Shown: piece after piece, positions 1 to 51,543 of the stretch
Layout: every line of letters begins with the position of its first letter
Numbering within the stretch: position 1 is the stretch's first letter
Origin: Candidatus Marinamargulisbacteria bacterium SCGC AG-343-D04
GTDB lineage: Bacteria; Margulisbacteria; Marinamargulisbacteria; GCA-2716485; GCA-002719695
Assembly (NCBI GenBank): GCA_003265885.1
Contig: QFBQ01000004.1
Span: 473 to 64,472 of the forward strand
Direction of reading: 5' to 3'
Length of the DNA: 64,000 bases
Translations under genes and position numbers: made by a program
Notes under the pieces: model-generated
Told to the model about the DNA's origin: nothing
Database searches by the model: none
What the model saw: the letters and a program-made list of their open reading frames with translations, nothing else

Positions 1-1
1 T

Positions 2-2977
2 AACACTCACACAAAAAAAATTGAAAACACTGTTTCCAATCATGACCTATGGCCCATCCCTTTTTATGAAATAAAACTTTTAAATTCTGCCTATAATAAA
101 AACTCGAAAAAGAAAAATCTTGCCTATTATATCTCAAATAGAAAAAAGTTTATTCTCACAAACTTTAAACAGTTAAAACAAGACCAAGAAAAGTTCCAAT
201 ACTCATGTAATGATGGCTTGTTTCTAAAGTTAGAAAATAAAAGCAGCCTATCATATGGAATTATTTTCATCCATTCGTGGAAAAATAAAAATAAACTATC
301 CTCCCATATTGATGACATTAATAAATATAAAGATATTTCATTAAACTACATTTCAAAAGCCATTAACATTCTAGAAAACTATACATTACACAGCAAAATC
401 AATAACTTAATTACAAATCAAAACAAATTAAAAGTAAAGCTACATAAAGACGAAATAAACTTAAAAAAAAGAGTCCTAGAGCTAACAAGTCTTTACGAAA
501 CATCAAATGAACTCAGCCAATCTCTCAATCATAACGAAATTATAAAAAAAGTTCTACACTCCCTTAACAAAGTCTTAAATTTAAATTTTTGCAGCATTTT
601 TTCATACAATTTATATAAGACAAATGACATATATATATCAAGCCCAAAAAAAGCGCCTAAAAGTATTCAAAACAAAATAGTTAATCAAACCTTAGAAATC
701 ATGGAATCCTTTATCTTTTCAAAAATAAGTAAAAATGAAGTCAAAAAATCCATAATTCACATTGATAACTATCACATTCCAATTACAGCTAAAGAAATTA
801 ACATACATACAAATATTCCTCTCATATTTAGGGGAGAACTTCTAGGTGTTATTTGTATTTTTTCTGCAGAGCATCAACAACTTAACGATAATCAAAATTT
901 CATTAACACCATTTCAAATCAATTAGCCTCCAGCTTAGGTAAAATAAAAATAATAAAAAATCTTGAAAAATCAAAAATCATTTCGCTTTTAGAAAACATA
1001 TCAGACCCCATCATTTTCATTGACGAACATACAAATCATCATATTATCAATACTGAAGCAGAAAAATCACTTCATTTAAATAATATTAATGAAAAAAAAT
1101 TAAACAAAGAGCTGCCCATAATTTTATATAATCTAGGACTATATAATTTATACCAGACTGTATCAAAAACAAAAAAAGCCGTAACCAATCTAAACATACA
1201 GTTTAATAATCATTTCTTTTCAGTAAACATTTCTCCACTTATAAACGAAACATCTCAGTTTTTAGGAACATTAATTACATTCAAAGACATTACAAAAATA
1301 AAAAAAATGGAACGAATAAAAACGCAACGACTCAATGCCATCTCCAAAATAAATCTTTTTATAAAATCAATCAAAAATACAAACCATCTCTTAGAAGTAC
1401 TCATTGATTATTTCTTAAGCATTTCAAATTGTAACATGGGATCCATTCAACTATTTAAAGACAAAAGTTTCATCACCTTCGCACACTCAAATTTTCCAGA
1501 AAAAGTACGTCAAACATATAGATTTAAAAATGGCATTTCAATATCAGAAAAAACACAAAAAACAAAAAAAATGCTCATTATTGATAATTACTTTAACAAC
1601 AAAAACATAAATCCAAATGTAAAAATATTAATTGAAACTTACATCTGCATCCCCTTACTTTACAACGACAATCTCATCGGAATAATTAACTTAGTTAAAA
1701 AATTTGGAGCTAATTCAATAGAGATAACAAAAGAAGACAAAGAAACCTTAACCACCGTAACTGCACTGGCATCAACGATAGTTCAAAACGCAATATTCTA
1801 CAAAGAGAATCTTGAAAAAGAAAAACTTGACCAAGAACTAAAAGTTGCAAAAGAAATACAAAACAGCCTTCTTCCAAAAAAAATACCCGAAAAAGAAAAA
1901 CTCATGATCAGCCTTTTAAACAGTCCCGCTAGAAAAATTGGCGGAGATTTTTATGATTTTATAGAAATGAAAAACAATAAACTAGGCATTATTATAGCAG
2001 ATATTGTCGGAAAAGGGGTTCCTGCTGGCTTATATATGGCTACACTAAAAAGCATCCTAACAAGAAACAACCACCATAACACCTCCCCTAAAAAAACACT
2101 TTATAAACTAAACAACATCATTTATCACGATCCCGTAATCAACAAGTTCATCCCCTTATTTTATGGAATTTTTGATTTAGATAAACACTCATTTACTTAC
2201 TCCAATGCAGGCCACGAAGGTGGGTTCATTTTTAGAAAAAATAAATTTATTTCTCTAGATACTAAAGGATTCCCTCTAGGAGGCTATAAAAATGAAAACT
2301 ATGAAGAAAAAACAATAAAAATAAACAATGATGACCTACTAACTTTTTTCACCGATGGCCTAATTGAAATTCGAAATGAAAAAAACAAGCTATTCGGAAT
2401 TCAAGGATTACAATCCTTTATAAAAAAACATCATAAATTTCCTACAAACATTATCATAAAAAAATTAAACAACGTCATAACATCATTCACTTCAAACAGC
2501 TCACATATAGATGATATCACTGCCATCATATGCAAATTTAACAAAAAATTTGAAAAAAACCACGAAATAATCTTTAGAGACGAATTCAGCACAAAAAGCA
2601 CCTTCAAAAACATCAAGGAAACCAGAAAAAAAATAACAGATTTATGTAAAAAAACAAATTTAGACCACAAAGCGATTTTAGACATACAGCTAGCTATTAG
2701 CGAAGCTCAAGTAAATATCATTGAACATGCATATCTAGGAAATGAAACAAAAAAAATAACATTTATTTTCACAGAATATAATGACAAAATAAAAATAACC
2801 ATCAAAGACCAAGGATTAAAAATGAACAAACACTATATAAGTAAAAAAAACACAAATATTAATGAAATAGAAGGGTCTGGCCTAGGTTTGTATCTCATCA
2901 ACACCTTAATGGATGAAATAGAACATAAAACAACAAAAGAAGAAACCTTACTTATTTTAACAAAATATAAAACATAA
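2..2977 (+). CDS. GAF/PAS/GAF sensor + PP2C (SpoIIE/RsbU) phosphatase + RsbW-type anti-sigma kinase fusion; 5'-truncated by the window edge
   Basis: I read the frame open from position 2 through the track start at 218. PP2C motifs GGDFYD, IADIVGKGVPA, NAGH, FTDGL, DDIT; C-terminal HATPase_c motifs SEAQVNIIEHAY, IKDQG, GSGLGLYL. Confidence 0.9.
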   Translation, partial: NTHTKKIENTVSNHDLWPIPFYEIKLLNSAYNKNSKKKNLAYYISNRKKFILTNFKQLKQDQEKFQYSCNDGLFLKLENKSSLSYGIIFIHSWKNKNKLSSHIDDINKYKDISLNYISKAINILENYTLHSKINNLITNQNKLKVKLHKDEINLKKRVLELTSLYETSNELSQSLNHNEIIKKVLHSLNKVLNLNFCSIFSYNLYKTNDIYISSPKKAPKSIQNKIVNQTLEIMESFIFSKISKNEVKKSIIHIDNYHIPITAKEINIHTNIPLIFRGELLGVICIFSAEHQQLNDNQNFINTISNQLASSLGKIKIIKNLEKSKIISLLENISDPIIFIDEHTNHHIINTEAEKSLHLNNINEKKLNKELPIILYNLGLYNLYQTVSKTKKAVTNLNIQFNNHFFSVNISPLINETSQFLGTLITFKDITKIKKMERIKTQRLNAISKINLFIKSIKNTNHLLEVLIDYFLSISNCNMGSIQLFKDKSFITFAHSNFPEKVRQTYRFKNGISISEKTQKTKKMLIIDNYFNNKNINPNVKILIETYICIPLLYNDNLIGIINLVKKFGANSIEITKEDKETLTTVTALASTIVQNAIFYKENLEKEKLDQELKVAKEIQNSLLPKKIPEKEKLMISLLNSPARKIGGDFYDFIEMKNNKLGIIIADIVGKGVPAGLYMATLKSILTRNNHHNTSPKKTLYKLNNIIYHDPVINKFIPLFYGIFDLDKHSFTYSNAGHEGGFIFRKNKFISLDTKGFPLGGYKNENYEEKTIKINNDDLLTFFTDGLIEIRNEKNKLFGIQGLQSFIKKHHKFPTNIIIKKLNNVITSFTSNSSHIDDITAIICKFNKKFEKNHEIIFRDEFSTKSTFKNIKETRKKITDLCKKTNLDHKAILDIQLAISEAQVNIIEHAYLGNETKKITFIFTEYNDKIKITIKDQGLKMNKHYISKKNTNINEIEGSGLGLYLINTLMDEIEHKTTKEETLLILTKYKT

Positions 2978-2994
2978 ATTTTGGAGGAAACGAT

Positions 2995-3375
2995 ATGGAA
3001 ATTGAAAAGAAAAAAATAAAAAACACAGAAGTTGTTCGTATTAATTTTGGGAAAGAAATCTCCCCAGAATCAAAAGAGCTTACAGGAACTATTGAGCTTG
3101 ATATAGAAAATCAGTTAGAGTTCGTTGACTATATAAACACTCTGTTAGACGAGAACTCTTATTCCATAATAATAGATATGGGAAATATAAGTTATATCGA
3201 TTCATCAGGACTATGGGCCTTATTTGAAAGTCACAAAAAAGCAGAACAAAGAAGTGGAAAACTAATTCTTATTAATCCAAAAAATGATGTCAAAAGAGTG
3301 CTAGATATCACAAAAATGTCAACCAAAATTACAATTCTGGAAAATGAAGAGCAAGCAATCCAACACTTTAAATAG
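2995..3375 (+). CDS. STAS-domain anti-sigma factor antagonist (RsbV/SpoIIAA-like)
   Basis: IDMGNISYIDSSGL phospho-Ser motif; VKRVLDIT; GGAGG RBS upstream. Confidence 0.92.
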   Translation: MEIEKKKIKNTEVVRINFGKEISPESKELTGTIELDIENQLEFVDYINTLLDENSYSIIIDMGNISYIDSSGLWALFESHKKAEQRSGKLILINPKNDVKRVLDITKMSTKITILENEEQAIQHFK

Positions 3376-3377
3376 TC

Positions 3378-5078
3378 ATGATTCTTTCATTAAAACAATT
3401 ACTCATAGAAAACTCGTTCATTAAAAAGGAAGATTTTAAATTAATTTCCAATACAAAAAAGAACAAAGAAATTTTCCAGCAGCTCCTAGAGAATGACCAA
3501 TATCATGATGAGGATATTTTAAAAGCCATTGCAAGTAATTTAAAAATTCCATTCGATGAAGTAAATGAAGCAACATTTGATCCAAAAGTTATTTCATTAA
3601 TCCCTGAAAATTATGCTAGAGAAAATATCATCGTCCCTCTTTTTAAACTCGGAGAAACTCTTTTTGTAGCCTTTGACAATCCATGCAGTCTAAATGTTAT
3701 CGAAGAGTTAGAAATCATTACTAAACAAGTCGTCTCTCCCGTCTTATCTCCAAAATCTTCCATAAATATACTAATAAATTATGGCTATTCCTACCAAGAA
3801 CAAAAAATTGAAGGAGATAGTTCCACCATGTCTAGCTTATTTGAAATGGGATTACAGTTAGTTGGAGATGAAGGCGGAGAAGAAGAAACAACTGACCTAG
3901 CTCATGAAGCTCCCATTGCAAAACTTGTAGACACCATCATAACCCAAGCCATCAATGAAAAAGCCTCTGATATCCACATAGAACCTGAAGAAAACACCGT
4001 AAAAATAAGATTCCGTGTAGATGGACTCCTAAAAGACATCATGGAGCCCCCAAAAAAGTTAGCATCCCCTGTGATCTCCCGACTAAAAATCTTATCAGAA
4101 TTAGACATTACCGAAACAAGAAAACCTCAAGATGGACGTTTAACATTTTCCTTAAAAGATAGAGATGTAGATTTTAGAGTATCAACAGTCAGAACCATCA
4201 CTGGAGAAAAAATGGTTCTTCGGATTCTAGATAAATCAGATGCCTTTGTTCAAATGGATAAACTAGGATTTAGAGAAAGTGAATTCAACAAACTCGACTC
4301 ACTGATATATTCTACATCCGGAATCGTTGTCGTATGTGGCCCCACCGGCTCTGGGAAAACATCGACACTATATGCAGCTCTGTCAAAAATAAACACCCCA
4401 GAAAAAAATATTATTACCATTGAAGATCCTGTTGAATTTAACCTAGATGGAATTAATCAAATTCCAGTTAATCCAAAAATAGGCGTTGACTTTGTCACTG
4501 GATTATCTGCAATTGTAAGACAAGACCCTGATGTAATTATGATTGGAGAAATTCGAGACATTGAAACAGCTAGTATTGCAATCCAAGCCGCATTAACAGG
4601 TCATCTTGTATTTTCAACACTTCATACCAGAAGTGCCGCCGGTAGTGTCACCCGATTAATCAATATGGGGGTACAACCCTTTTTAATTAACAGTTCTTTT
4701 CTTGGAGTTGTAGGACAGCGTCTAGTCAGAAATATTTGTCCAAACTGTAAAAAAGAAGTCAAATACGAAGAGTATCAAGGGATAAAAGCCAAGACACTCC
4801 TTAAGAAATTAACAGAAGAATACAATGCTCCTAAAATTTTCAAAGGAGCCGGATGCAAATACTGCAATGACCTAGGATATAAAGGCCGAATTGGCATATT
4901 TGAAATATTAACTCTCGATGAAGATACACGATCCTTAATTATTGAAAAAGCAAGTTCAGAGAAAATAGTCAACGCTGCTATAAAAAATGGAATGACCTTA
5001 ATGGTTGATGATGGCATTGAAAAACTAATGGAAGGGTTAACCACAGTAGAAGAACTCATTAGAGTTATCGATGTTTAG
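3378..5078 (+). CDS. Type IV pilus / T2SS assembly ATPase (PilB/GspE family)
   Basis: Walker A GPTGSGKT, TIEDPVE, RQDPDVIMIGEIRD, STLHT, CPNC...CKYC zinc site, T2SSE_N-like N-terminus. Confidence 0.95.
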   Translation: MILSLKQLLIENSFIKKEDFKLISNTKKNKEIFQQLLENDQYHDEDILKAIASNLKIPFDEVNEATFDPKVISLIPENYARENIIVPLFKLGETLFVAFDNPCSLNVIEELEIITKQVVSPVLSPKSSINILINYGYSYQEQKIEGDSSTMSSLFEMGLQLVGDEGGEEETTDLAHEAPIAKLVDTIITQAINEKASDIHIEPEENTVKIRFRVDGLLKDIMEPPKKLASPVISRLKILSELDITETRKPQDGRLTFSLKDRDVDFRVSTVRTITGEKMVLRILDKSDAFVQMDKLGFRESEFNKLDSLIYSTSGIVVVCGPTGSGKTSTLYAALSKINTPEKNIITIEDPVEFNLDGINQIPVNPKIGVDFVTGLSAIVRQDPDVIMIGEIRDIETASIAIQAALTGHLVFSTLHTRSAAGSVTRLINMGVQPFLINSSFLGVVGQRLVRNICPNCKKEVKYEEYQGIKAKTLLKKLTEEYNAPKIFKGAGCKYCNDLGYKGRIGIFEILTLDEDTRSLIIEKASSEKIVNAAIKNGMTLMVDDGIEKLMEGLTTVEELIRVIDV

Positions 5079-5137
5079 ATTTCACTCTTGTTTGGAACTA
5101 TAAAAAAAGTATTCTCTTCAATAAAGGAGTTACATAG

Positions 5138-6340
5138 TTGAAAACATTTATCTATGTATATAAAACCGCTGACAATAAAATTGTCAAAAAAAAGCTTAAA
5201 GCCAGCAATTTAGAAAGTGCTAATAATTTTCTAAAGAAAAAAAATATAACCCCCATTTCTATAAAACAAGAACGGCTAAAGTTAATTGAACAACTCACTA
5301 AGCCTACGACTGTTGAAAATGACGATATTGTCGCATTTTCTCAATTATTCGCAGGTTGTATTCAATCCGGACTAAACATAAAAGAATCATTAGATCTTTT
5401 ATCCAAACAATTAAAAAACGCACTCTTAACAGAAAAGTTATCTGAAATTATCATCGATATTGAAGGGGGGGCTGCCATATCGGACTCCTTCAGTAAACAT
5501 ACTGACATTTTTCCAAAGTTTTACCCCATGCTACTCAAAGCAGGTGAAGCCTCTGGAAATCTAGCTGAAGTATTAGAATATATTGCAAATTATTTAGACA
5601 AAACAAACAATCTAAAAAAACAAATTAAAAGCGTTTTAACCTATCCTGCTATAGTATCTGTCATCGGACTTGGGTTACTTGTTGTCATACTTATTTTCGT
5701 TGCCCCCACATTTAAAGATGTATTCAAGTCATCCGGAAAAGACTTGCCTGGCCCTACTAAACTACTATTTTACATGTCAGATCTTGTCATAAATAATTAT
5801 AATCTAATACTATTAATTATTTTATCTGTTCTATTAACCTTTTATTTAATTCACAAAAATCCAAAAGGAAAACGAGCTCTAGATACACTATCTCTATATC
5901 TACCTATTTCTGGGGATATAACTAAACAAATACTTTTACTTCGATTCCTAGGTGCCTTTGATATACTCATTAATAACAACGTCCCCATAACACAAGCACT
6001 AGCCGTTATCGAAGAAGCAACTTCAAATATGCGACTAAAAGAAATTATTACTGAAATGAGAAAAGATGTTGCAAGAGGACTCCCGATATCAGGCGCATTA
6101 ATAAATAATCCTAAGATAGTATCCCCTATGGTTTCATATACTATTTCTATGGGAGAAAAAGCCGGAAATCTTGGTGTTTCATTAAATAGAATTAGTAGTT
6201 TTATAGATAAAGAACTCACATACTCAATGAAAAAGCTTACTTCAAAATTAGACCCTATCATTACATTTTTTTTGGGCATGATTGTATTATTTATAGCAAT
6301 GGCTATATACCTCCCTATATTTGATCTCATGCTTCAATAA
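5138..6340 (+). CDS. Type IV pilus / T2SS inner-membrane platform protein (PilC/GspF family)
   Basis: Duplicated T2SSF repeats (AGEASGNL, MGEKAGNL), LTYP, YLPIFDL C-terminus; TTG start with AGGAG RBS. Confidence 0.93.
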   Translation: MKTFIYVYKTADNKIVKKKLKASNLESANNFLKKKNITPISIKQERLKLIEQLTKPTTVENDDIVAFSQLFAGCIQSGLNIKESLDLLSKQLKNALLTEKLSEIIIDIEGGAAISDSFSKHTDIFPKFYPMLLKAGEASGNLAEVLEYIANYLDKTNNLKKQIKSVLTYPAIVSVIGLGLLVVILIFVAPTFKDVFKSSGKDLPGPTKLLFYMSDLVINNYNLILLIILSVLLTFYLIHKNPKGKRALDTLSLYLPISGDITKQILLLRFLGAFDILINNNVPITQALAVIEEATSNMRLKEIITEMRKDVARGLPISGALINNPKIVSPMVSYTISMGEKAGNLGVSLNRISSFIDKELTYSMKKLTSKLDPIITFFLGMIVLFIAMAIYLPIFDLMLQ

Positions 6341-6458
6341 GAAGATAATAAAACAAACTCGATTGACGAACCTGAAATTTTAAACAATACTTAATCATAA
6401 ATAGGTATTGTTTTTCAACAATAGTGATTGAAAACAATCCTCAAAAAAAGAGGTACAT

Positions 6459-7940
6459 ATGGAAACAACAACTCAAGAAACAGACCATATTTCAGAAGAA
6501 GACATTCGTTTGAAAAAATTAGAAGAACTAAAAAAGAAACATGAAAATGTCTTTGAATACAGTTATAATCCTACACATAAAACAGATGCCTTACATAAAC
6601 ATTACAACTCTTTAACAGAAGGAGAAAAACATACAGATAAAATCATACTAGCTGGACGAATAACTGCAAAGAGAGACCATGGAAAAGCCTTCTTCGGCAA
6701 CATCCAAGACGATAATGGCACTGTTCAATTCTATGCCAACGTAAAAGAAGTTGGAGAAGAAAAATTTAACGAACTACTCTCCCTAGATACAGGCGATATT
6801 ATTGGCATAGAAGGAACACCCTTTAAAACCAGAAGAGGCGAATTAACAGTAAATACAAACACCTTTACTCTACTCACCAAATCTCTATTACCTCTTCCAG
6901 AAAAACACCATGGACTACAAAACATTGAACTTCGATATAGACACAGATATTTAGATCTTATTGCAAATCCAGATGTAAAAAGCATCTTTAAAACCCGCTC
7001 AAAAGCCATTTCAATGATTCGACATGAATTAGAAAAGTTAGACTTCATAGAAGTAGAAACCCCCGTTTTACAAAATATTTATGGTGGAGCAATGGCAAAA
7101 CCATTCGACACCTTCCATAATGAGTTAGAACAAAATCTATATTTAAGAATATCACTCGAATTATACTTAAAACGCCTCATAGTGGGAGGGTTTGAAAAGA
7201 TTTTTGAAATCGGAAGAGTATTTAGAAATGAAGGGATTTCATATAAACACAATCCTGAATATACACTTCTAGAACTATACCAAGCCTACGCAGATTACGA
7301 AGACATGATGACCTTAACTGAAAACTTAATCAGAAACTTAGTGACAGCCATTCACGGAAAAACAAAAATAACCTATAAAGATCACGAAATAGACTTTTCA
7401 AAACCTTTTAAACGAATCAAATTAACAGATTCCATTGAAGAAACCTGTAACATAGATTGTAATGACGAAAAAGCTCTCCAACAAAAAATAAAAGAACTAA
7501 AACTAAAGGTCCCCGAAAACGCCTCAAAAGGCCACATGATTATGGAACTATACGACGAACTCATTGAACCCACTCTCATACAACCTACATTCATAATAGA
7601 CCACCCTTGGGAAACATCTCCTCTTGCCAAAAAACATCGGAAAAATAAAAACAATGTTGAACGTTTTGAATTAATTATCAGCGGCATGGAAATAGCAAAT
7701 GCATTTTCAGAACTTAATGACCCTATTGACCAATACGAACGCTTCATAGATCAACTAAAAGCAAAAGAAAAAGGTTTGGAAGACGCTCAATTAATGGACG
7801 AAGATTTTATAAAATCCTTAAAACACGGCATGCCTCCAACAGGTGGATTAGGAATAGGAATCGACAGAGTTATTATGTTATTAACAAACTCTAGTTCCAT
7901 ACGAGAAGTCATTTTTTTCCCTCATATGAGAGATAAATAA
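6459..7940 (+). CDS. lysS: Lysine--tRNA ligase (class II)
   Basis: AGRI..KR.HGK, RYRHRYLDL, YLRISLELYLKRL, FRNEG, HNPEY, GMPPTGGLGIGIDR. Confidence 0.98.
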   Translation: METTTQETDHISEEDIRLKKLEELKKKHENVFEYSYNPTHKTDALHKHYNSLTEGEKHTDKIILAGRITAKRDHGKAFFGNIQDDNGTVQFYANVKEVGEEKFNELLSLDTGDIIGIEGTPFKTRRGELTVNTNTFTLLTKSLLPLPEKHHGLQNIELRYRHRYLDLIANPDVKSIFKTRSKAISMIRHELEKLDFIEVETPVLQNIYGGAMAKPFDTFHNELEQNLYLRISLELYLKRLIVGGFEKIFEIGRVFRNEGISYKHNPEYTLLELYQAYADYEDMMTLTENLIRNLVTAIHGKTKITYKDHEIDFSKPFKRIKLTDSIEETCNIDCNDEKALQQKIKELKLKVPENASKGHMIMELYDELIEPTLIQPTFIIDHPWETSPLAKKHRKNKNNVERFELIISGMEIANAFSELNDPIDQYERFIDQLKAKEKGLEDAQLMDEDFIKSLKHGMPPTGGLGIGIDRVIMLLTNSSSIREVIFFPHMRDK

Positions 7941-7971
7941 AAAAAGTATGTTGTTCACATAAAGTCTTCGT

Positions 7972-7986
7972 TATAATAGATATATG
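7972..7986 (+). promoter_or_regulatory. Putative -10 box 6 nt before the secD ATG (leaderless transcript)
   Basis: TATAAT-agatat-ATG; no SD. Confidence 0.55.
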
Positions 7987-9294
7987 TCCAAATTAAAATT
8001 TATACTTCTAACACTTCTTATCGCCTTAAGCTGTTATGTCATTTATACAAAACCCATAAAACTAGGGTTAGACTTGCAAGGCGGAATGCTCTTAATCCTT
8101 GAAGCTGAACCTACCAAGAAACAACCCCTGACTCACGAAGCCTTATTAGGCAGCATTGAAGTAATCCGAAACAGAATAGATTCACTCGGTTTAACAGAGC
8201 CCAGCATAAGAAAGTTAGGAGAAAATCAAATTTTAGTAGAACTGCCCGGTGTAAACAATCCAAAGCAAGCAAAAGAACTCATAGGAGATACGGCTCTTCT
8301 AGAATTCTATATTTCTGAATGGGCTCCAAATGGCATCGAAAATCTTCCCCCGGATAAACAAAAAATATTAATGGGAAACAAAGGAAAATTAAGCCATTTA
8401 ATAGAAAAAGATAAAAACGGAAATATAATCAATAAAAAGCCTATCATACTACACAGCGTTGCTTTAACAGGAGCAGATTTACTAAATGCAAATCCTGGAA
8501 CTGATGAATTTGGAAACCCAGTTGTAAGCTTAGAGTTTAATCCTGAAGGTGCCAAAAAGTTTTATAATACGACACTCAACAATCGAAACAAACCTCTGGC
8601 CATTGCCTTAGACAAAACCATTATTTCTGCCCCTAATATAAACGAAGCTATCTCAGGAGGAAAAGCACAGATTTCTGGAAATTTCTCTTACACTGAAGTT
8701 AAAGATTTAGTGATTAAACTTAAAGCAGGTGCATTGCCATTGCCCGTCACTATTGTGCTCGAAAAGCAAATTGGGCCTACTCTAGGTAAAGACTCCATAG
8801 ACAAAAGTAAAACAGCCTTCTTAATAGGCTTTATAATCGTCGCCTTCTTTATGATCTTCATATATAAAACACCTGGAATCATTTCCTGTATTAGTCTTAT
8901 TACCTATATTATCATCTCTTTTTCACTCTTTAAATTTTTAAACGCAACCTTAACACTTCCAGGTATTGCCGGCTTTATCCTGACAATGGGAATGGCTGTA
9001 GATGCCAATGTCATTATTTTTGAACGCATACAAGAAGAAATAAACACCGAAAAAGGGCTCAAAAAAGCCATCATTAATGGCTTTAACAAAGCCTACTACA
9101 CCATATTAGATGCCAATATTACAACACTCATTGCCGCTATAGTCCTCTTTTGGTTAGGAACAGGCAGTATTAAAGGATTCGCTATTACACTTTCAATAGG
9201 TATTTTAGTCAGTATGTTTTCAGCCATTACCATAACACAATCTATATTAATAAGCTTTCCTCAAATAAAGCTGTTTAAAAAAAAGGATATATAA
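7984..9294 (+). CDS. secD: Protein translocase subunit SecD (short form)
   Basis: LGLDLQGG, RNRIDSLGLTEP, LKAGALP, LTLPGIAG, GMAVDANVIIFERI. Confidence 0.97.
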   Translation: MSKLKFILLTLLIALSCYVIYTKPIKLGLDLQGGMLLILEAEPTKKQPLTHEALLGSIEVIRNRIDSLGLTEPSIRKLGENQILVELPGVNNPKQAKELIGDTALLEFYISEWAPNGIENLPPDKQKILMGNKGKLSHLIEKDKNGNIINKKPIILHSVALTGADLLNANPGTDEFGNPVVSLEFNPEGAKKFYNTTLNNRNKPLAIALDKTIISAPNINEAISGGKAQISGNFSYTEVKDLVIKLKAGALPLPVTIVLEKQIGPTLGKDSIDKSKTAFLIGFIIVAFFMIFIYKTPGIISCISLITYIIISFSLFKFLNATLTLPGIAGFILTMGMAVDANVIIFERIQEEINTEKGLKKAIINGFNKAYYTILDANITTLIAAIVLFWLGTGSIKGFAITLSIGILVSMFSAITITQSILISFPQIKLFKKKDI

Positions 9295-10191
9295 ATGAAA
9301 TATACATTTAAATTTACAGAAAAATTTAATTTTTGGGCATTCATAAGTATTACTCTAATAGCCATAGGGTTTTCCTTAATGGGCTTACGCGCATTTGAAT
9401 CAAAGCCCTACTTAAACTTCGGAATAGACTTTATGGGTGGAAACACCTTCCATTTACAACTTCAAGAATCGTCTAACGAAAACACCTTAAAAATGATTAG
9501 AGAATCACTAAAATCATTTAATCTAGAAAATAGCCAAATACAATTATCAGGAGAATACGAAGTCTTTATCAAAACATTGGAACTAAAAGAAAATAAAACG
9601 GAACAAATCATGTCTCATTTAAAAGAAACTATTGGGAACTTCGAAATCTTAGAGATTCAACAAATTGGGGGAAATATCGGAAACTCATTAAAAAGACAAT
9701 CTATTTACATCATCATTTTTATCACTCTTTCTCTTTTAATATATGTAACCTTTCGCTTTCAATTTAACTTTGCATTATCCGCACTCATCGCATTGATTCA
9801 TGACGGACTCATCATTTTAAGCGTCGCATCCATTTTAATGCTAGAAATTAACACCGCATTCATCGCAGCCTTATTAACTATTTTAGGCTACTCTATAAAC
9901 GATACTATCGTCATATTTGACAGAATTAGAGAAAATATCGAGAAATCAAAAGCAACTCAATCATTAAAAGAAATAACAAATACAGCTTTAAATCAAACTC
10001 TCACTCGAACAATTAACACATCCATCACGACCTTAATCGTCATTTCCTCTTTAATCCTATTTGGAGGATCTACAATCAAAGAGTTTTGTATCATCTTATT
10101 TATAGGAGTTGTGAGTGGAACATACTCATCACTATGCATTGCAAGCTCTACAGTTGTTAAATTTGAACGATTTAATAAAATAAATATTTAG
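9295..10191 (+). CDS. secF: Protein translocase subunit SecF
   Basis: GIDFMGG, GYSINDTIVIFDRIREN, RTINTSITT. Confidence 0.97.
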   Translation: MKYTFKFTEKFNFWAFISITLIAIGFSLMGLRAFESKPYLNFGIDFMGGNTFHLQLQESSNENTLKMIRESLKSFNLENSQIQLSGEYEVFIKTLELKENKTEQIMSHLKETIGNFEILEIQQIGGNIGNSLKRQSIYIIIFITLSLLIYVTFRFQFNFALSALIALIHDGLIILSVASILMLEINTAFIAALLTILGYSINDTIVIFDRIRENIEKSKATQSLKEITNTALNQTLTRTINTSITTLIVISSLILFGGSTIKEFCIILFIGVVSGTYSSLCIASSTVVKFERFNKINI

Positions 10192-10200
10192 AAAAAAATA

Positions 10201-11166
10201 TTACTTCTTTTCGGAAACAAAAGACCCCATTTGTCTAAATTTATGATGTCTCTGCTCTACAATCTCATCTGTACTGAGTTTTAAAAATTGCTTCATATTA
10301 GCCAAGATAGTTTTTTTGATACTCACCGAGGTCTCTTCCCAATTATAATGGGCACCACCTAAAGGCTCTTTTATCACTTCATCTGCAACTCCCAAGTCAA
10401 CAACATCCTTCGCAGTAATTTTTAAGTTTTTAGTAGCTTTTTCAGATTGCTTCGCATCTCTAAATAAAATAGAAGCACATCCTTCAGGAGATATTACAGA
10501 ATATACAGAGTATTCCATCATAAACACCTTATTCGATACACCTATCGCTAAAGCTCCACCAGATCCACCCTCTCCAATCACAAAGGTAAGTATAGGTACC
10601 GTAATTTTAACCATTTCCCGTAAATTTCGTGCTATAGCTTCAGCCTGCCCCCGTTCTTCAGCCTCAATCCCAGGAAACGCCCCTGGTGTATCTATGAAAG
10701 TCACGATAGGAATTGAAAATTTTTCAGCCATTTTCATTAATCTCAATGCTTTTCTATATCCTTCAGGGTGAGGCATCCCAAAGTTTCTAAATATATTTTC
10801 TTTAGTATCATGCCCTTTTTGATGCCCTATAAACATGACCCTCTGCATCCCTATAACCCCTAGACCTCCAACAATAGAAGGATCATCTCGAAAAAGCCTA
10901 TCTCCATGCAACGGAATAAATTTGTCGCATATAAGCCTAATTAAGCTAGTTGAATCAGGTCTATTGATATGCCTCGCAATTTGAACAACCTGATGCGGGG
11001 ATAAATTACTATAAATATCTTTTTTTAATTTAACAGCACGATTCTCAATCGATTTAATTTCGCTATCTAGATCCATCTTTCCATCTTTAGAAAGCTCCTT
11101 TAACTGATCAATTTTGTCATAAAGATCTTTTAAGGGTTTTTCAAACTCTAATAGTTTAACACTCAT
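10201..11166 (-). CDS. accA: Acetyl-CoA carboxylase carboxyltransferase alpha
   Basis: LEFEKP, HGDR...DD, GMPHPEGYRKA, IDTPGAFPG, GEGGSGGALA. Confidence 0.98.
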   Translation of the reverse strand: MSVKLLEFEKPLKDLYDKIDQLKELSKDGKMDLDSEIKSIENRAVKLKKDIYSNLSPHQVVQIARHINRPDSTSLIRLICDKFIPLHGDRLFRDDPSIVGGLGVIGMQRVMFIGHQKGHDTKENIFRNFGMPHPEGYRKALRLMKMAEKFSIPIVTFIDTPGAFPGIEAEERGQAEAIARNLREMVKITVPILTFVIGEGGSGGALAIGVSNKVFMMEYSVYSVISPEGCASILFRDAKQSEKATKNLKITAKDVVDLGVADEVIKEPLGGAHYNWEETSVSIKKTILANMKQFLKLSTDEIVEQRHHKFRQMGSFVSEKK

Positions 11167-14030: not shown

Positions 14031-14543
14031 ATGAGCCTAAAATACAAACGAATAACACTCATTGGAATGTCTGGTGTAGGAAAAACAACATTCGGAAAAG
14101 AACTTGCGAAACAAGAATCCTATACCTTTATAGATACAGATCTTTTGATAGAAAAACAACTCCATTCTAAAATTAAACCCTATATTAAAAAATATGGTGA
14201 AAAAAATTTTAAAGCACTAGAAGAAAATACCATTTTAAACTTACCCATCGATGAACATACCATCATCTCCACTGGCGGCAGCGTTATTTATTCCGAAAAT
14301 GCCATGAATTACTTAAAAAAAGAGTCCACCATAGTCTATCTCAAAGACTCCCTTAAAAATATTAAAAATAGAATCAAAGATTTTAATAAACGAGGTCTCA
14401 TTATGGGAAATCACGACTCTCTTGAAAGTCTCTATAACGAACGAAGAAAATATTATGAAAACTACGCAGATATCACCATAAATTATCCTGATTTCTTTTC
14501 TATTTCAAAGATTTTACATACAATTACCTCACATCTATCATGA
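14031..14543 (+). CDS. aroK: Shikimate kinase
   Basis: LIGMSGVGKTT, DTD, ISTGGS, RGL lid, ERRKYY. Confidence 0.92.
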   Translation: MSLKYKRITLIGMSGVGKTTFGKELAKQESYTFIDTDLLIEKQLHSKIKPYIKKYGEKNFKALEENTILNLPIDEHTIISTGGSVIYSENAMNYLKKESTIVYLKDSLKNIKNRIKDFNKRGLIMGNHDSLESLYNERRKYYENYADITINYPDFFSISKILHTITSHLS

Positions 14544-15364
14544 CACAACATAAAACCTTAACACATCCAGGTTCTCTATCTGGAATAGGCATACACTCCG
14601 GAAACAAGGTATGTCTAGAGTTTTCTCCCTCAAAGGAAGAAGGGATAACATTTAAACAAAAACAAAATCCCCAAAAAAAACTCACTGTCAGCCCTAAAAC
14701 ATCACACTCCGAACATAATAGAGCAACCTGTCTCAAAAACTCATCCATGACCATTTCAACCCCCGAACACCTCCTATCCGCTTGCGCAGGCCTAGGATTA
14801 ACCCATCTATCCATTACCATAGACCAAGAAGAAATCCCCATTTTAGATGGAAGCGCAAAGCCATTCATAGACCTCTTTACGTCACTTGGAATAACAGCAT
14901 TACCTTCAACAGTAGCCCCTATTATCATTAAGGAACCCATACACCTCTACGAACATGACCAAGCTATTATAGTCACGCCCTCGTCAGCACCTATATTTAG
15001 CTATTTTTTGCATTACCCTCATCCCGTCATTAATACTCAATGTATTTCACTAGAGTTTACACAATCGTCTTATATCTCATCTATTTCTGAAGCTCGAACC
15101 TTTGGATTTGAAGAAGAAATTCAACACTTAATTAAAAATGGCCTCGCAAAAGGCGGTTCTCTTGATAACGCATTAGTCATAGGTGATACTGACTATATAA
15201 ACCCGCCTAGATTTCCAGACGAATGTGCCAGGCACAAACTATTAGACCTTATCGGTGACTGCTGGATTTTAAATAGACCTATTCATGGACATATCACAGG
15301 AATAAAGTCAGGACATTCTTTAAACAATGCATTGGTAAAACATCTGACAAAAATCCTAGCTTAA
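14540..15364 (+). CDS. lpxC: UDP-3-O-acyl-GlcNAc deacetylase
   Basis: GIGIHSG, TPEHLLSA, EIPILDGSA, ARTFGF, GGSLDNALV, HKLLDLIGD. Confidence 0.97.
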   Translation: MTQHKTLTHPGSLSGIGIHSGNKVCLEFSPSKEEGITFKQKQNPQKKLTVSPKTSHSEHNRATCLKNSSMTISTPEHLLSACAGLGLTHLSITIDQEEIPILDGSAKPFIDLFTSLGITALPSTVAPIIIKEPIHLYEHDQAIIVTPSSAPIFSYFLHYPHPVINTQCISLEFTQSSYISSISEARTFGFEEEIQHLIKNGLAKGGSLDNALVIGDTDYINPPRFPDECARHKLLDLIGDCWILNRPIHGHITGIKSGHSLNNALVKHLTKILA

Positions 15365-25892: not shown

Positions 25893-26639
25893 ATGACAAA
25901 AAAAATAAACGATTTTAAACATATTCGTCAAAACTTTACCCCACACTCAGAAAAAGATATAAAAAGTATTGCTCAATTTAACTTTTCAAAAGAAGAATGG
26001 GTATCACGTTTTCACGATATATTAATAAAACACAATATTCCACTTGTACTTTTATACGGGACTTGTTTAGGAATAGTACGAGATAAAAAAATTATTGATA
26101 ATGATACCGATGCCGATTTTGGAATATTTCTTGAAGATCTATCTAAGCTGTTTTCATGCATACCCGAGCTTCTCGACAATGGCTACTTTATTTCTGGAAG
26201 AGGTTTATTCCAGATCTCATTTAGCCTACCCAACATAAATTTTTATATCGACATCTGGCCAATTAAAAAAGTCACAAATCCATTCTTAAGACTATTTAAA
26301 ATGAAGTGGTTGTGTGACCATGTCTATTTTAAACAAGACTTCTTCAACACCCCCGAATCTATACAATTTTTAGAGAGAAACTACTTAACCCCTCATCCTA
26401 AAGAACTTTACCTTGAAACAGTCTACGGTCTCGACTGGAGAACTCCCATTAAAAATCGTTTTTCTGGTCCAAGAGGCGCTCTATCTCAATATATCAATAA
26501 GTGTTTTGTAGATTTTCCAATACCCTCTCAATTCTCCGGAGACAATTCTCTCGGAACGTTTAAACCATGGGTATCCTATATTTTAAAAAAATTCTTTCCA
26601 AAATCACGTATATCCTCCATGTTCAATCACCCAAAATAA
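25893..26639 (+). CDS. LicD-family nucleotidyltransferase-fold phospho(no)transferase, copy 1
   Basis: YGTCLGIVRD...NDTDADFG (LicD GTxLGxxR...DxD), YLETVYGLDWRTP. Confidence 0.85.
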   Translation: MTKKINDFKHIRQNFTPHSEKDIKSIAQFNFSKEEWVSRFHDILIKHNIPLVLLYGTCLGIVRDKKIIDNDTDADFGIFLEDLSKLFSCIPELLDNGYFISGRGLFQISFSLPNINFYIDIWPIKKVTNPFLRLFKMKWLCDHVYFKQDFFNTPESIQFLERNYLTPHPKELYLETVYGLDWRTPIKNRFSGPRGALSQYINKCFVDFPIPSQFSGDNSLGTFKPWVSYILKKFFPKSRISSMFNHPK

Positions 26640-26658
26640 AATACTACATGTCGCATCT

Positions 26659-27426
26659 ATGACTAAAAACATCAAAAAAAATCCAAAAGAAATCAAGTCC
26701 TTTTCCGAAATGGAAAAAATATTTAGAACTAACATCCAAGAAGAAACAACACAAAATATCACTCTTAAAAATGAAGACTGGCTAATAAAATTCAATCAAA
26801 TACTGTCTAAGAACAATATAAAAACGATACTTTTATTTGGATCTTGTTTAGGAGTTATTCGCCAAAATTCGCTCATTGACTACGATCACGACGCAGATAT
26901 TGGCATTTTTTTTGAAGACCTTTTATCTTTTCATAACTGCTTACCTGAGTTAGAAAAAGAGGGATTTTATATATCTAAAACCAAAAAATTCAAAATTCAT
27001 ATTAACATGCCAAACACCGACTTCTGTATAGATCTTATGCCTGTCAAAAAAATTCAAAATATTTTCTTTAAACTATTTGGATATAAATGGTTTTGTGACA
27101 TGATATATTTTAAAGATAATTTTTTTGAATCCCCAAAAAAAATAAACTTTAAGTCCCAAGTTTTTTTTACTCCCAACCCTACAGAACTATATTTAGAAAA
27201 AACTTATGGTAAAAATTGGCGAACTCCAATAAAAAATAGAAATGCTCACTTACGTCCAGTATTATCACAAATCATAATTAAATATTTTGTAGACTTTCCT
27301 GTCCCTCTTGAGTTTTCTGGAGATAACTCTCTTGGCACATTTAAACCTTGGATATCAAAACTCTTAATAAAAACCTGTCCTAATGCTAAAATCACTTCAT
27401 CATATAAACACCCTAAATCACAATGA
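26659..27426 (+). CDS. LicD-family protein, copy 2 (paralog of copy 1)
   Basis: [10 protein letters not shown]...[21 protein letters not shown]; shares [13 protein letters not shown] with copy 1. Confidence 0.85.
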
Positions 27427-29021
27427 AAAAAACAAGTCACCTTAAACAACTCATTCAAAGCAAACAGCTAGAGTTCCTTATGGAAGCCCATAATGGCATG
27501 AGTTCAATCATTGCCCAAGAAGCCGGATTTAAAGGAATTTGGGGAAGCGGATTATCTATATCCGCAAGTCTTGGAGTCAGAGACAACAATGAAGCCTCCT
27601 GGACTCAAGTCATCGATGTTCTAGAGTTTATGAGCGATGCAACTGACATTCCCATTCTATTAGATGGTGATACAGGTTATGGAAACTTTAATAATGTAAG
27701 GCGTCTAATTAAAAAACTAGAACAACGTGACATTGCTGGAGTTTGCATCGAAGATAAACTCTTTCCAAAAACAAACTCATTTATTAACGGAGAATCTCAA
27801 GATTTAGCTGACATTGACGAATTTTGTGGAAAAATAAAAGCAGCTAAAGACACTCAAAAAGATCCAGATTTTTGTGTTGTTGCTAGAGTTGAGGCCTTTA
27901 TTGCTGGTTTAGGACTTGAAGAAGCTCTAAAACGAGCGGAAGCTTATGAAAATGCAGGTGCAGACGCCCTTCTCATTCACAGCAAAAAATCAACTGCTGA
28001 AGATATTGTCGACTTTATGAAACATTGGAAAAAAAACACCCCTATCATTATTGTCCCAACTAAATATTACTCAACTCCTACCGAACTTTTCAATAAAATT
28101 GGCATATCTACTATAATTTGGGCAAATCACTCTATCAGATCTTCTGTTCAGGCCATTAAAGAAACTGTCAACACCATTCATAAAGAACAGCACTTAAAGA
28201 ATATAGAAAGCAATATTGTATCCGTTTCAGAAATTTTTAGATTACAAGGTTCCGATGAACTTGCTCAAGCTGAAAAACAGTATCTTCCCGGGTACGAGCT
28301 ATCTCTATCTAGCATCATATTAGCTGCTGGAGCATCAAAGATAGACAGCCTAACTGAAAACATCCCAAAATGCCTGATAGATATCAATAACAAAACTATA
28401 CTAGATCATCAAATTGATGCTTTTAAAAAGTTTAATATCTCCGATATTACAATTGTAAGAGGCGATAAAAAAGAAGCTTTTCTTGAAAACCAATATACAA
28501 ATATCGACAATAACTCGTTTCATGAAACTCACGAAGTATATTCTCTATATTTAGCTAAAGAAAAACTAAAAAATGAATGCTTTATTAGCTATGGAGACAT
28601 TGTTTTTAAAGACTACTTTATACACGAATGTTTAAATAACAAATCTGATATCTCCATTATTGTAGATTCATCATGCAAAAAAGATGCCTCAAATAAAGAT
28701 TACATAAGCGCAACAAAAGAATATGACCCCATTAACTTTAATCAAGACACCTACCTAACAAAAATGAATAGAAAAATCGACGCCAACTCAATTCATGGAG
28801 AATTTATCGGATTAATCAAAACATCTAAAAAAGGAAGCAATATCCTATTAGAAGCCCTAAGCTCCTTACCTGAAGAAGAACTAAAAACAATGCATATGCA
28901 AGACCTACTTAACCACTTAATTGAAAAAGGTCATCAAATCTCTATCATATATATTCAAGGAAATTGGGCCGACGTAAATACCATTGCAGATCTTCATCTA
29001 GCCACTAACTTATATGCTTAA
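27423..29021 (+). CDS. pepM: Phosphoenolpyruvate mutase fused to a C-terminal NTP-transferase (cytidylyltransferase-like) domain
   Basis: PepM-diagnostic [10 protein letters not shown] (EDKx5NS), [14 protein letters not shown]; C-terminal IILAAG...PKCL. Confidence 0.96.
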
Positions 29022-30153
29022 AACCACCGAAATTGGAGAGGCATTATCTTCATACGGATTCAATTTTTATTCGGGTGTTCCTTGCTCATTTTTAAAAGAT
29101 CTTATCAATTATGCCATCAACCATTGTAACTATATATCTGCAACAAACGAAGGAGATGCCGTCGCTACCTGCGCAGGAGCCGCTTTAAATGGAGAAAAAA
29201 CAGTGATGCTCATGCAAAATTCCGGCCTAGGAAACACTGTTTCACCACTCACATCTCTCATTTATACCTTCAAGCTACCGATACTCATGTTTTGCAGTCT
29301 CCGAGGTGAAAAAGGAATTCAAGATGAACCTCAGCATGAACTAATGGGAGAAATCACCTCGTCCTTACTTAAAACTATGAATATTAACTATGCTGTACTC
29401 AATCCAAATATCAATACAGCTCTAAAACAATTAGATCAAGCCAATTTCTACATAGAAAAAGGCCTTCCCTTTTGTTTTATAGTCAAAAAAAACAGCTTTG
29501 AACCTCATAAACTAGAACGCTCTCAACTCCCGACCAAACATAAAGAAACAGACTATAACAACATCAACACCACTCCATTAGGCTCTCGAACAGACGCCCT
29601 CAACATCATTAAAAAAAGTCAACCCAAACATGCTGTATTACTCGCAACTACCGGAAAAACAGGACGTGAGTTATTCGAGCTAGGACATGAACCTAACCAT
29701 TTTTATCAAGTAGGGTCTATGGGCTGCATTAGTGCTATAGGCCTAGGTTTAGCTTCATCACATAAAAGGTTACCCACCATCGTGATAGATGGAGACGGCG
29801 CAGCCTTAATGAGACTTGGAAGTTGGGCTACCAACGGCTACTACAGCCCTAATAACCTATGCCACATTCTTCTAGATAATGAAGTCCACGATTCTACAGG
29901 AGGACAAGATACAGCCTCTAAAGCCGTAAACTTCGTTCGTTTAGCGAGCTCTATGAACTACCCAAAAGCATTTTCTGTCACATCATTTGATGACTTAAAA
30001 CGTCGCTTAGAAGAATGGACAAACTCCCCTCAACTCACACTTATTCATGTTAAAATAAATCCAGGAAGTCCTAAAAAACTAGGAAGACCCACTCTTACAC
30101 CTATCGAAGTCGGTAATCAACTGAAGCAGTATATAAAGGACACTCATGATTAA
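29014..30153 (+). CDS. aepY: Phosphonopyruvate decarboxylase
   Basis: [40 protein letters not shown], ThDP motif DGDGAALM...[10 protein letters not shown]. Confidence 0.95.
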
Positions 30154-34393: not shown

Positions 34394-35606
34394 TTATTTT
34401 CCTACATTCATTCCCGCAATATAACCCGTAGACCAGGCATTTTGAAAATTGAAGCCCCCTGTAACACCATCTATATTCAAACATTCCCCCACAACAAACA
34501 GGCCAGGAATAGCTTTGGACTCCATCGTTTTCATTGACATTGTATCACAATTCACCCCGCCACTCGTTACAAACTCTTCTTTAAAAACACCTTTCGCCGT
34601 CAAGCTATACCGATCTTTTTTCAAAAGATCGACTAAGACTCTCAATTTTTTTTGAGATAACGTCGACCATGTACATCCATCAGCATCACACTTAGTTAAA
34701 AAATAGCGCCATAAGCGTAAAGGAATGTCTGAAAAGAGTGACTGAGTCTGACATTGCTGATTAGAGCCCGCATTCTTCATCTCAGAAAAACGATTAAACA
34801 CATCCTCATGAGAAAAGCCTGGCAACCAATCTACGTCAAAAGAAGATCTATATCCACATTCATGTAAATATCGAGCAGACCACGCCGATGCCTTAATTAT
34901 CGCAGGCCCGCTCATACCCCAATGAGTAATCAATAATGCCCCCTCTTGAGGCTTGAAACCAGGAACTGTAATCGTAGCATTAGCTACAGACAAACCCATC
35001 AACGAACACAACTGCTTATCTTGAATAGTAAAGCTGAACAAAGACGGAACAGGATCCACCACATCCATTTCTAAAGATCGTAAAAAATCATAGCCTTGTC
35101 TCCCCCCCCCCTGAGGCCATAATCACTCGATTAAATACCCGTTCTGGAGCATTATGAAAATGACAAGAAAAATCACCGGACTCTAAACGGTGAATAGATT
35201 TAACACCACATGCCGTTTGAATCTTTACCCCCACAGACTTAGCCTCCTGTAACAAACAATCCACAATATCTTGAGACAAGTCTGATACAGGAAATACTCT
35301 ATTATCGTCCTCCACTTTCAGCTCAACACCTCTAGATGAAAACCATTGCATCGTATCTTCAGGTTGAAATTGCTGAAAAACACTCAACAAAGCCTTTCCA
35401 CCTCTTGGATAAAACTCTGTTAATTGTCGGGTATCAAAGCAGGCATGTGTTACATTACACCTTCCCCCACCTGAAATCCGTACTTTTTGCAAGACTTCTT
35501 TACCTTTCTCAAACAAAATAACATCCGAATCTGGAAAAAAATATTTAGCATGAATAGCCGAAAAAAAACCCGATGCTCCGCCTCCTATAACAACTATAGA
35601 TACCAT
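34394..35606 (-). pseudogene. HI0933/YhiN-family FAD-dependent oxidoreductase split by a frameshift in a G10 tract (or a sequencing indel)
   Basis: N half: GGGASG, ISGGGRCNVT. C half: DPVPSLF, FVTSGGV, GGFNFQNAW. Removing one G at 35102-35111 gives a continuous 403-aa frame (…ASGGGRQGYDFLRSLEMDVVDP…). Confidence 0.88.
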
Positions 35607-45046: not shown

Positions 45047-45048
45047 CT

Positions 45049-48095: not shown

Positions 48096-48222
48096 CTTGG
48101 TTTTAAAATACTGAAAATTTAGTTTAGAGTCTAGAAAGATGCTTAAAAACAGCAGTGATTCATATATTAAATATATCTCCATTTAAGCAGATCAGTTTAG
48201 AATTTTATTAAGATTGAAAAAA

Positions 48223-49560: not shown

Positions 49561-49561
49561 A

Positions 49562-51528: not shown

Positions 51529-51543
51529 GTAGAATAATAGACC

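Follow-up and report, generated by a model that had tools for sequence, protein, structure and literature searches.

What does a partner switch control when its genes run directly into those for a pilus assembly motor? Partner switches with outputs other than sigma factors are known, and STAS-only proteins with non-sigma or so far undefined outputs include SypA (paired with SypE), BtrV, RbaV and HmpV (PMC8256260), whose direct targets are mostly unidentified. The question was raised by the left end of a 64-kb stretch of DNA from a marine Candidatus Marinamargulisbacteria (the whole stretch is called the window below). With this locus an uncultured marine phylum, whose physiology is inferred from genomes only, gains a regulatory feature.

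A compact run of switch and pilus genes

All window genes described here lie on the forward strand. The gene for a sensor phosphatase/kinase (2..2977) is open from base 2 and ends with TAA at 2975-2977. The full-length protein has 1038 aa (database entry P0001), so that just 47 N-terminal residues (47 codons) fall outside the left edge of the window and the C-terminal 991 are encoded inside it. A 17-nt spacer (2978..2994), in which direct reading of the sequence revealed an RBS, GGAGG, at 2983-2987, leads to the gene for a STAS-only protein of the anti-sigma-factor antagonist type (126 aa, 2995..3375; Pfam and NCBIfam). Its stop codon, TAG at 3373-3375, is followed by the two letters 'tc' and then by the ATG of pilB at 3378. 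The PilB/GspE-family pilus assembly ATPase (566 aa, 3378..5078) and, 59 nt further on, the PilC/GspF platform protein (400 aa, 5138..6340) were both assigned by Pfam/NCBIfam profiles. pilC starts with TTG, with AAGGAG 8 nt upstream. Ribosome-binding sites lie where expected across these junctions; at the pilB start no Shine-Dalgarno sequence is visible on reading. The order and gaps agree with those reported in a sequence-only reading of this DNA, which had placed STAS 17 nt after the sensor, the pilB ATG 2 nt past the STAS stop, and pilC next. Downstream, lysS, secD and secF (6459..10191) continue in the same orientation; the same genes stand directly 3' of STAS in relatives that lack pilBC.

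Judged from the spacing, sensor, STAS, pilB and pilC are probably co-transcribed. A promoter and terminator scan of 1..10400 returned the same counts as shuffled sequence, and it thus neither supports nor opposes internal promoters. The domain E-values given below, together with the conservation seen over more than 20 loci in relatives, place the arrangement far beyond chance.

The upstream region of the unit was read in relatives. There a small receiver (REC) gene, overlooked in the sequence-only reading, opens the unit at a position that lies just past the left end of the window. In all relatives with a readable upstream region this separate gene of 115-133 aa lies directly before the sensor start or runs into it. 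The receiver is degenerate in the clade to which the window belongs.

PilB matched T2SSE (E=4e-134) and, at its N-terminus, MshEN (E=5e-13), with the Walker A motif GPTGSGKT present; PilC matched T2SSF (E=5e-51; all Pfam). The PilB profile TIGR02538 scored 588.7 bits and the GspE profile 576 bits, both under their own cut-offs. As for gene neighbourhoods in relatives, a prepilin gene follows the orthologs in two loci (L008 and L009), and in a third (L098) pilins, PilM, PilO and a secretin come after PilB. No prepilin gene was detected in the 64-kb window by a prepilin motif search or by tblastn with the relatives' pilins. A metagenome scan with a single PilB protein gave 7 loci, none informative, the patterns being too specific.

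Conserved phosphatase, kinase and STAS modules

The N-terminal part of the sensor holds an input region (533..1783) in which Pfam identified GAF (533-937, aa 178-312), PAS (986-1294, aa 329-431) and a second GAF (1385-1783, aa 462-594). Of these input domains the second GAF is the best conserved, with a mean column identity of 0.65. A PP2C (SpoIIE-family) serine phosphatase domain follows (1976..2539, aa 659-846, E=1.4e-36), and then an RsbW/SpoIIAB-type GHKL serine kinase (anti-sigma-like) domain (2603..2965, aa 868-988, HATPase_c_2 E=5.9e-22). The top NCBIfam matches of the C-terminus were RsbW (E=6e-21) and SpoIIAB, the kinase domain matched RsbW of PDB 6m36 in sequence, and an alignment with Rv1364c (PDB 3ke6) spanned both the PP2C and the kinase domains (E=2e-10). 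Across 19 orthologs the PP2C motifs GGDFYD, D-VGKG, NAGHE, TDG and DD-T were invariant or nearly so, and the kinase motifs E901/N905/H909, D936-x-G and GSGLGL were invariant. The fusion, PP2C first, was present in all full-length orthologs. The single chain with GAF/PAS inputs, a PP2C phosphatase and an opposing RsbW-type kinase, as proposed from the letters, is thus borne out by Pfam matches and by catalytic motifs that are invariant or nearly so family-wide.

The STAS protein matched PF01740 (E=5e-17) and carries YIDSSGLW at aa 67-74, with Ser70 and Ser71 (codons 3202-3207) as candidate phospho-serines. Among 41 orthologs 28 columns were invariant, including the DSSG motif. In an AlphaFold model (pLDDT 95.5) helix 2 begins at residue 70, and the top fold matches were SpoIIAA, TM1081 and RsbV (TM 0.75-0.85). 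The model indicates a SpoIIAA-like protein whose helix 2 has a conserved Ser at its N-terminal end, where the serine of DSSG singled out earlier is predicted to lie.

In a switch of this make-up, the GAF-PAS-GAF region would set the balance between the PP2C and RsbW-like kinase activities of the sensor, probably with help from the small receiver whose gene lies immediately upstream. The kinase domain would add, and the PP2C domain remove, phosphate on the STAS protein, presumably at Ser70 (or Ser71). STAS would then swap partners, being either held by the kinase or, in its putative active form, free to act on a target, which would not be a sigma factor encoded nearby.

Candidate sigma-factor outputs

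A Sigma70 domain scan of the 64-kb window, covering ORFs of 150 aa and longer as well as the main gap ORFs, found no sigma factor, and none was found in relatives within 8-10 kb upstream or downstream. The lack of a downstream sigma factor noted in the sequence-only reading therefore extends to all window ORFs scanned, and the upstream side, where it had allowed for a cognate factor, was likewise free of one over 8-10 kb in relatives. A nearby sigma factor as the explanation of the module was rejected on these two results.

A sigma factor encoded elsewhere might still be sequestered by the kinase domain and released by STAS, as with CrsR and HsbR, which bind RpoS despite having no rpoS nearby (PMC6482189). 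The adjacency of pilB-pilC would then be a leftover of how genes were ordered in the ancestor of a compact genome; these genes would not be targets of the switch and could at most be regulon members. That the sensor C-terminus most resembles RsbW and SpoIIAB, both of them anti-sigma factors, fits such an output, as does the presence of the housekeeping genes lysS and secDF in the same tight co-oriented string. Marinamargulisbacteria also carry at least one more PP2C-STAS pair, close to a sigma-70 gene and CheA/CheY genes (locus L028). However, neither the window scan nor the relatives' flanks yielded a candidate sigma factor, and we regard control of a distant one as possible but doubtful.

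Conservation of the operon and its linkage to pilB

The REC-sensor-STAS-PilB-PilC block is kept down to 30% sensor identity. Its upstream flank is ACIII/cox in L001 and L007 versus recA-rny-ymdB-lptFG in L009 and L100; downstream, most loci have lysS-secDF, L023 has TfoX_N and L100 has other genes. The STAS-PilB-PilC order is intact although both flanks differ (L023, L100, L009), and in nearly all loci that contain pilBC the pilB start either overlaps the STAS stop or lies 2 nt from it. Retention down to 30% identity and through both flank changes points to an old operon, and comparison of the loci indicates that its ancestral form was a compact REC-sensor-STAS-pilB-pilC. The switch thus stands directly before pilB-pilC over long evolutionary distances in the sister lineage of Cyanobacteria. 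Passive synteny by itself would not lead one to expect the STAS-pilB-pilC linkage to survive where lysS-secDF or the upstream genes have been replaced, and this argues against inherited gene order with a distant sigma factor as the output.

The same linkage, with a start codon at most 2 nt from the STAS stop in nearly all pilBC loci and no visible RBS, would suit direct control of the motor. One phospho-form of STAS would bind to PilB, the N-terminal domain being the probable site, and the phospho-state would thereby gate the assembly ATPase, so that pilus assembly would be switched on or off post-translationally with PilB as the main output. If true, this would be the first partner switch whose output is not a transcription factor but a type IV pilus motor. 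Against this reading, none of the 59 more distant STAS loci (L032-L090, ~30% identity, mostly Acidobacteriota) had PilB adjoining STAS; L090 alone had a weak PilB-like match, ~8.5 kb off on the opposite strand. The PilB ortholog of sediment (Rifle) Margulisbacteria, which lies within a complete pilus cluster, has no adjoining switch.

Loss of pilB-pilC in relatives

pilB and pilC were absent at the locus in 9 of the 21 informative orthologous loci, all of which retain REC-sensor-STAS with undiminished conservation and with the same invariant residues in the switch as loci that contain pilBC. Mean pairwise STAS identity was 0.56 with pilBC and 0.55 without, and the invariant motifs were identical. 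In the pilBC-less loci STAS adjoins lysS, in some with a 4-nt overlap; these junctions being equally tight, a close STAS junction is not specific to pilB. The pilBC-less loci are interleaved across the tree (simple NJ trees from one protein pair). L013 has lost pilC and the ATPase domain of PilB but retains, right after STAS, an intact 150-aa ORF that corresponds to the N-terminal domain of PilB. Repeated gains of pilBC were rejected in view of the orthology of the PilBs, the need for an identical insertion point each time, and the L013 remnant. We conclude from these gene contents that pilBC was, by all indications, lost repeatedly while the switch was retained.

These losses warn of another job for the switch and weigh against direct motor control, and its persistence after pilBC in many lineages would be expected were a distant sigma factor the output. 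The L013 ORF can be read in two ways: retention of the PilB N-terminal domain next to STAS favours direct motor control, but the remnant is just 34% identical to PilB and so has the appearance of decay. Residue Q85 of STAS, invariant in 11 pilBC-plus loci and altered in 3 of 8 pilBC-minus loci, favours contact with PilB. Taken with the distant STAS loci and the Rifle PilB, the evidence leaves direct gating of PilB an improbable account.

The output of the switch thus appears not to be exclusively PilB, as judged by the absence of pilBC at the locus only. Since the switch is unchanged in relatives whose pilB-pilC has been deleted, a second target is suggested. We give about even chances to a bifunctional fused phosphatase/kinase partner switch that sits in an ancestral pilB-pilC operon and has at least one further target encoded elsewhere. 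Made together with PilB and PilC, it would most likely tune pilus-related behaviour in addition to that target. Of the earlier proposals, the RsbUW-STAS-PilB-PilC order proved conserved to deep divergence but is broken by the missing pilBC in those nine loci; similarly, a toggle without a local sigma factor as output agrees with the make-up of the switch and the sigma-factor searches, while the pilus-specific part of that output is weakened by the same losses.

Comparison with known partner switches

Novelty of the fused toggle, as first put forward, was overstated, since there are earlier examples of fused phosphatase/kinase switches that lack a sigma factor nearby (SypE/SypA, HsbR/HsbA, CrsR/CrsA and Rv1364c). 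HsbR-HsbA of Pseudomonas aeruginosa and CrsR-CrsA of Shewanella oneidensis combine PP2C and then an RsbW-like kinase/anti-sigma domain in one chain that acts on a separate STAS protein (PMC6482189); their operons have no sigma gene, and more than one partner is known for their STAS protein (PMC6482189, PMC5085249). Similarity to the window sensor is at the domain level only. Their input is a receiver fused at the N-terminus, whereas here it is GAF-PAS-GAF with the receiver encoded by a separate upstream gene, and their operons have no pilus genes, unlike the window operon with its pilB-pilC.

RsbU/RsbW/RsbV-SigB and SpoIIE/SpoIIAB/SpoIIAA-SigF of Bacillus share the same three domain families, and their phospho-serine sits where STAS helix 2 begins, as does the candidate serine here. 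Their components are separate proteins, however, with the gene for the cognate sigma factor in the same operon, where the window has none in 64 kb. Rv1364c carries its STAS domain on the same chain and has a single PAS input, unlike the window sensor, and is not known to have pilus genes beside it. The domain order of SypE, kinase-REC-PP2C, is opposite to that of the window sensor. Rv1364c of Mycobacterium tuberculosis (PDB 3ke6) fuses PP2C and an RsbW-like kinase in the same order as the window sensor, and SypE of Vibrio fischeri is a dual serine kinase/phosphatase on the STAS-only protein SypA, whose unphosphorylated form acts on a non-sigma, so far undefined target, both genes lying inside the locus of the cell-surface structure they control (PMC8256260). 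That structure is a polysaccharide, not a pilus.

A functional parallel to direct motor control is HmpU/HmpW/HmpV of Nostoc punctiforme, from the Cyanobacteria, the sister group of Margulisbacteria. [quoted passage not shown] Binding of STAS to PilB is therefore a concrete and cheap hypothesis, and gating of PilB, should it hold, would suggest that PilB is the effector long sought for HmpV-type STAS proteins in cyanobacterial motility. The Hmp system differs from the window operon in that phosphatase and kinase are separate proteins and the genes lie in a chemotaxis-like locus, not with pilB-pilC.

Organization and conservation of the switch genes

ORF calls over bases 2..6340 gave four co-oriented genes on the + strand. 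The first, open from the window edge to a TAA at 2975–2977, encodes a sensor whose database twin (P0001) is 1038 aa long, so 47 residues are missing at the edge. Pfam places a GAF (aa 178–312), a PAS (aa 329–431), a second GAF (aa 462–594), a SpoIIE/PP2C (aa 659–846, E=1.4e-36) and a HATPase_c_2 domain (aa 868–988, E=5.9e-22) on this one chain, and NCBIfam matches its C-terminus best to RsbW and SpoIIAB, which are anti-sigma factors. A 17-nt spacer including GGAGG leads to the gene for a 126-aa STAS protein (start 2995, + strand), residues 67–74 of which read YIDSSGLW. The STAS stop (TAG, 3373–3375) is followed by the two bases 'tc' and the ATG of pilB (566-aa PilB/GspE ATPase, + strand), and pilC (400-aa PilC/GspF, + strand) begins with a TTG at 5138 behind AAGGAG. 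The sequence-only reading had described this arrangement, with GAF/PAS inputs, PP2C and an RsbW-type kinase on one polypeptide and the same spacings, and was correct in each particular. Downstream of pilC lie lysS, secD and secF on the same strand, and beyond them accA and accD on the opposite strand. The 118-nt pilC–lysS spacer (6341–6458) includes an AT-rich palindrome (TATTGTTTTTCAACAATA). It has no prepilin gene, unlike the loci of two relatives, L008 and L009, in which a canonical one lies 3' of pilC.

Among 19 orthologs, the PP2C motifs GGDFYD, D-VGKG, NAGHE, TDG and DD-T and the kinase N, G1 and G2 boxes (E901/N905/H909, D936-x-G, GSGLGL) are invariant or near-invariant. The PP2C-kinase half matches P. 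aeruginosa RssB, RsbW and SpoIIE in sequence, and M. tuberculosis Rv1364c, a solved fused phosphatase-kinase, over both domains. The STAS protein is unusually conserved (>200 homologs at 50–65% identity; 28 invariant columns in 41 sequences), whereas sensor identity is only 30–51%. The conserved STAS surface takes in E34–Q40, K81/K82/Q85 and D98–K111. In its AlphaFold model (pLDDT 95.5) helix 2 begins at Ser70, and the top superpositions are SpoIIAA (from the SpoIIAB complex), TM1081, TM1442 and RsbV (TM 0.75–0.85). Because the catalytic motifs are conserved, the STAS fold is SpoIIAA-like and Rv1364c is matched, the earlier proposal of a bifunctional toggle on a STAS serine is well supported at the level of sequence. 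Sensor ORFs depart from this pattern in two relatives: in L027 (6469–8631) the protein stops after PP2C, without a kinase domain, and a 292-nt gap precedes STAS; in L008 (5885–8969) it is split into several ORFs, by decay or long-read frameshifts.

Only ~14 full-length sensor homologs were found (41–51% identity), all of them of marine metagenomic origin or from single-cell or metagenome genomes of Candidatus Marinamargulisbacteria. Genes in the window for LpxC (14540–15364), a TolC-like outer-membrane efflux protein (61225–62556) and outer-membrane phospholipase A1 (62553–63758) would fit a diderm envelope with LPS in this lineage.

An upstream receiver gene and the search for a sigma factor

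Wherever the DNA upstream of a relative's sensor was readable, a gene of 115–133 aa ends immediately before the sensor start or overlaps it (L001 9628–9993; L003 9646–9993; L007 8182–8571; L009 5437–5817); by position, this gene would lie just past the left edge of the window. The operon unit is therefore bigger than first described and includes this receiver gene. Most lineages have a canonical receiver (DD...D...T...K), but the clade of the window has lost the DD acidic pair while retaining the C-terminal YKPFDIEE face, which suggests a pseudo-receiver adaptor.

The earlier statement that no sigma factor lies downstream holds for all ORFs scanned across the 64-kb window. On the upstream side, 8–10 kb of the relatives' DNA likewise showed no sigma factor before the receiver gene, where, depending on lineage, ACIII/cox, recA-rny-ymdB-lptFG or pst/phoU genes lie instead. 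The ACIII/cox operon agrees with that published for Marinamargulisbacteria (PMC6349859).

Repeated loss of pilBC beside a retained switch

GTDB species representatives were scanned with the STAS alignment, loci were classed by tblastn plus ORF calls, and extra contexts were looked up; counts take orthologous loci with a readable gene after STAS. The order anticipated from the window, STAS-PilB-PilC, was kept in 12 loci (the window, L003, L007, L008, L009, L011, L012, L018, L019, L023, L025 and L100), but pilBC is absent in 9 others, where lysS follows STAS (L010, L013, L014, L016, L017, L021, L022, L027 and the P0075 locus). L100 (identities: sensor 30%, STAS 49%, PilB 50%) has the receiver-sensor-STAS-PilB-PilC block with another upstream region and without lysS downstream. 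In L023 a TfoX_N gene and other, unrelated genes come after the block, and in L009 the upstream region differs. Since the block persists in these three despite changed flanks, we take it to be more than mere background synteny. The TfoX_N-domain gene of L023 (12316–12645; competence-regulator family) overlaps the pilC stop, and hints at a possible role of PilB-PilC in DNA-uptake pili of some lineages.

The pilBC-plus and -minus states are interleaved on simple NJ distance trees of sensor and STAS, a pattern that calls for five or six separate deletions from a pilBC-bearing ancestor. In L013, a free-standing 150-aa ORF (493–945) directly 3' of STAS corresponds to the PilB N-terminal (GSPII/MshEN) domain (34% identity to window PilB residues 27–143), the ATPase domain and pilC being deleted. 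Mean pairwise STAS identity was 0.55 in pilBC-less loci vs 0.56 in the others, with the invariant motifs shared; only Q85 was relaxed in the former (3/8).

What the switch may act on

Judged by gene order, the five-gene operon dates far back and has stayed intact through rearrangements; this history speaks for co-expression and for some functional tie with the pilus. The switch is retained, unchanged, wherever pilBC was deleted, so PilB, its absence being judged at the locus, cannot be the only STAS partner. Direct control of PilB by STAS as the main output we consider unlikely. Nor is the close STAS-PilB spacing evidence of a special relationship, because this compact genome as a rule has tight or overlapping junctions, whichever gene comes next; in L010, L016 and L017 the STAS stop and lysS start overlap by 4 nt. 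More distantly, PilB adjoined STAS in 0/59 loci (~30% identity; mostly Acidobacteriota), where the RsbW-like kinase is usually a separate gene; the sole weak PilB-like match (L090) was ~8.5 kb off on the opposite strand. In one Margulisbacteria genome from Rifle sediment, the PilB ortholog (52%) leads a complete cluster in which pilins, PilM, PilO and a secretin follow, with no switch alongside.

Fused phosphatase/kinase partner-switch regulators acting on STAS without a local sigma factor are already established in HsbR-HsbA, CrsR-CrsA and SypE-SypA, and Rv1364c provides an example of solved structure. HsbR-HsbA, like CrsR-CrsA, controls RpoS, with FlgM bound by HsbA as well (PMC6482189); HsbD is a further HsbA target (PMC5085249), and the target of SypE-SypA is unknown (PMC8256260). 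Control of a distal sigma factor in the manner of CrsR or HsbR, with pilBC as passive neighbours, is a tentative alternative, somewhat less doubtful than PilB as main output. The reading we prefer, at roughly even chances, is of a partner switch that acts on a non-local target and was co-expressed ancestrally with the pilus genes.

In Nostoc, the HmpU/W/V switch controls hormogonium pilus-driven motility via an undefined effector (PMC6495340, PMC8256260); full-text searches combining pilB with partner switches or anti-sigma antagonists returned nothing beyond that work. The toggle as such is a known principle. What appear to be new are the operon fusion of the switch with pilB-pilC and the GAF-PAS-GAF input plus a separate, sometimes degenerate, receiver. 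A second, paralogous GAF-PP2C + STAS pair, without a kinase domain, occurs in Marinamargulisbacteria (L028 7077–14429), adjoining two CheY-like receivers, a CheA-CheW fusion and a sigma-70 gene, a layout reminiscent of the cyanobacterial hmp locus.

Other features of the window

A phosphonate biosynthesis cluster (25893–31993) comprises two LicD-family genes, a PEP mutase-nucleotidyltransferase fusion, a TPP-dependent decarboxylase and a nucleotidyltransferase-aminotransferase fusion; its product is probably 2-aminoethylphosphonate-decorated surface molecules. An HI0933-like flavoprotein (34394–35606, - strand) is divided between neighbouring ORFs of 172 aa and 224 aa with 19 nt between them, by either a gene interruption or an error in sequencing. 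Over 1–64000, + strand GC skew is strongly negative (-0.08 to -0.38) in nearly all 2-kb bins regardless of gene strand, and near zero or positive only at 44–48 and 50–52 kb. This stretch (~44000–52000), with a sugar-nucleotide/glycosyltransferase cluster (43227–48095) and two tandem DEAD-box helicases (48223–50938), could have arisen by inversion or been acquired as an island. Between the genes for RNase III and a PCRF/RF-1-domain peptide chain release factor lies that of a 667-aa DUF5693 protein of unknown function (53835–55838, - strand; E=1e-125).
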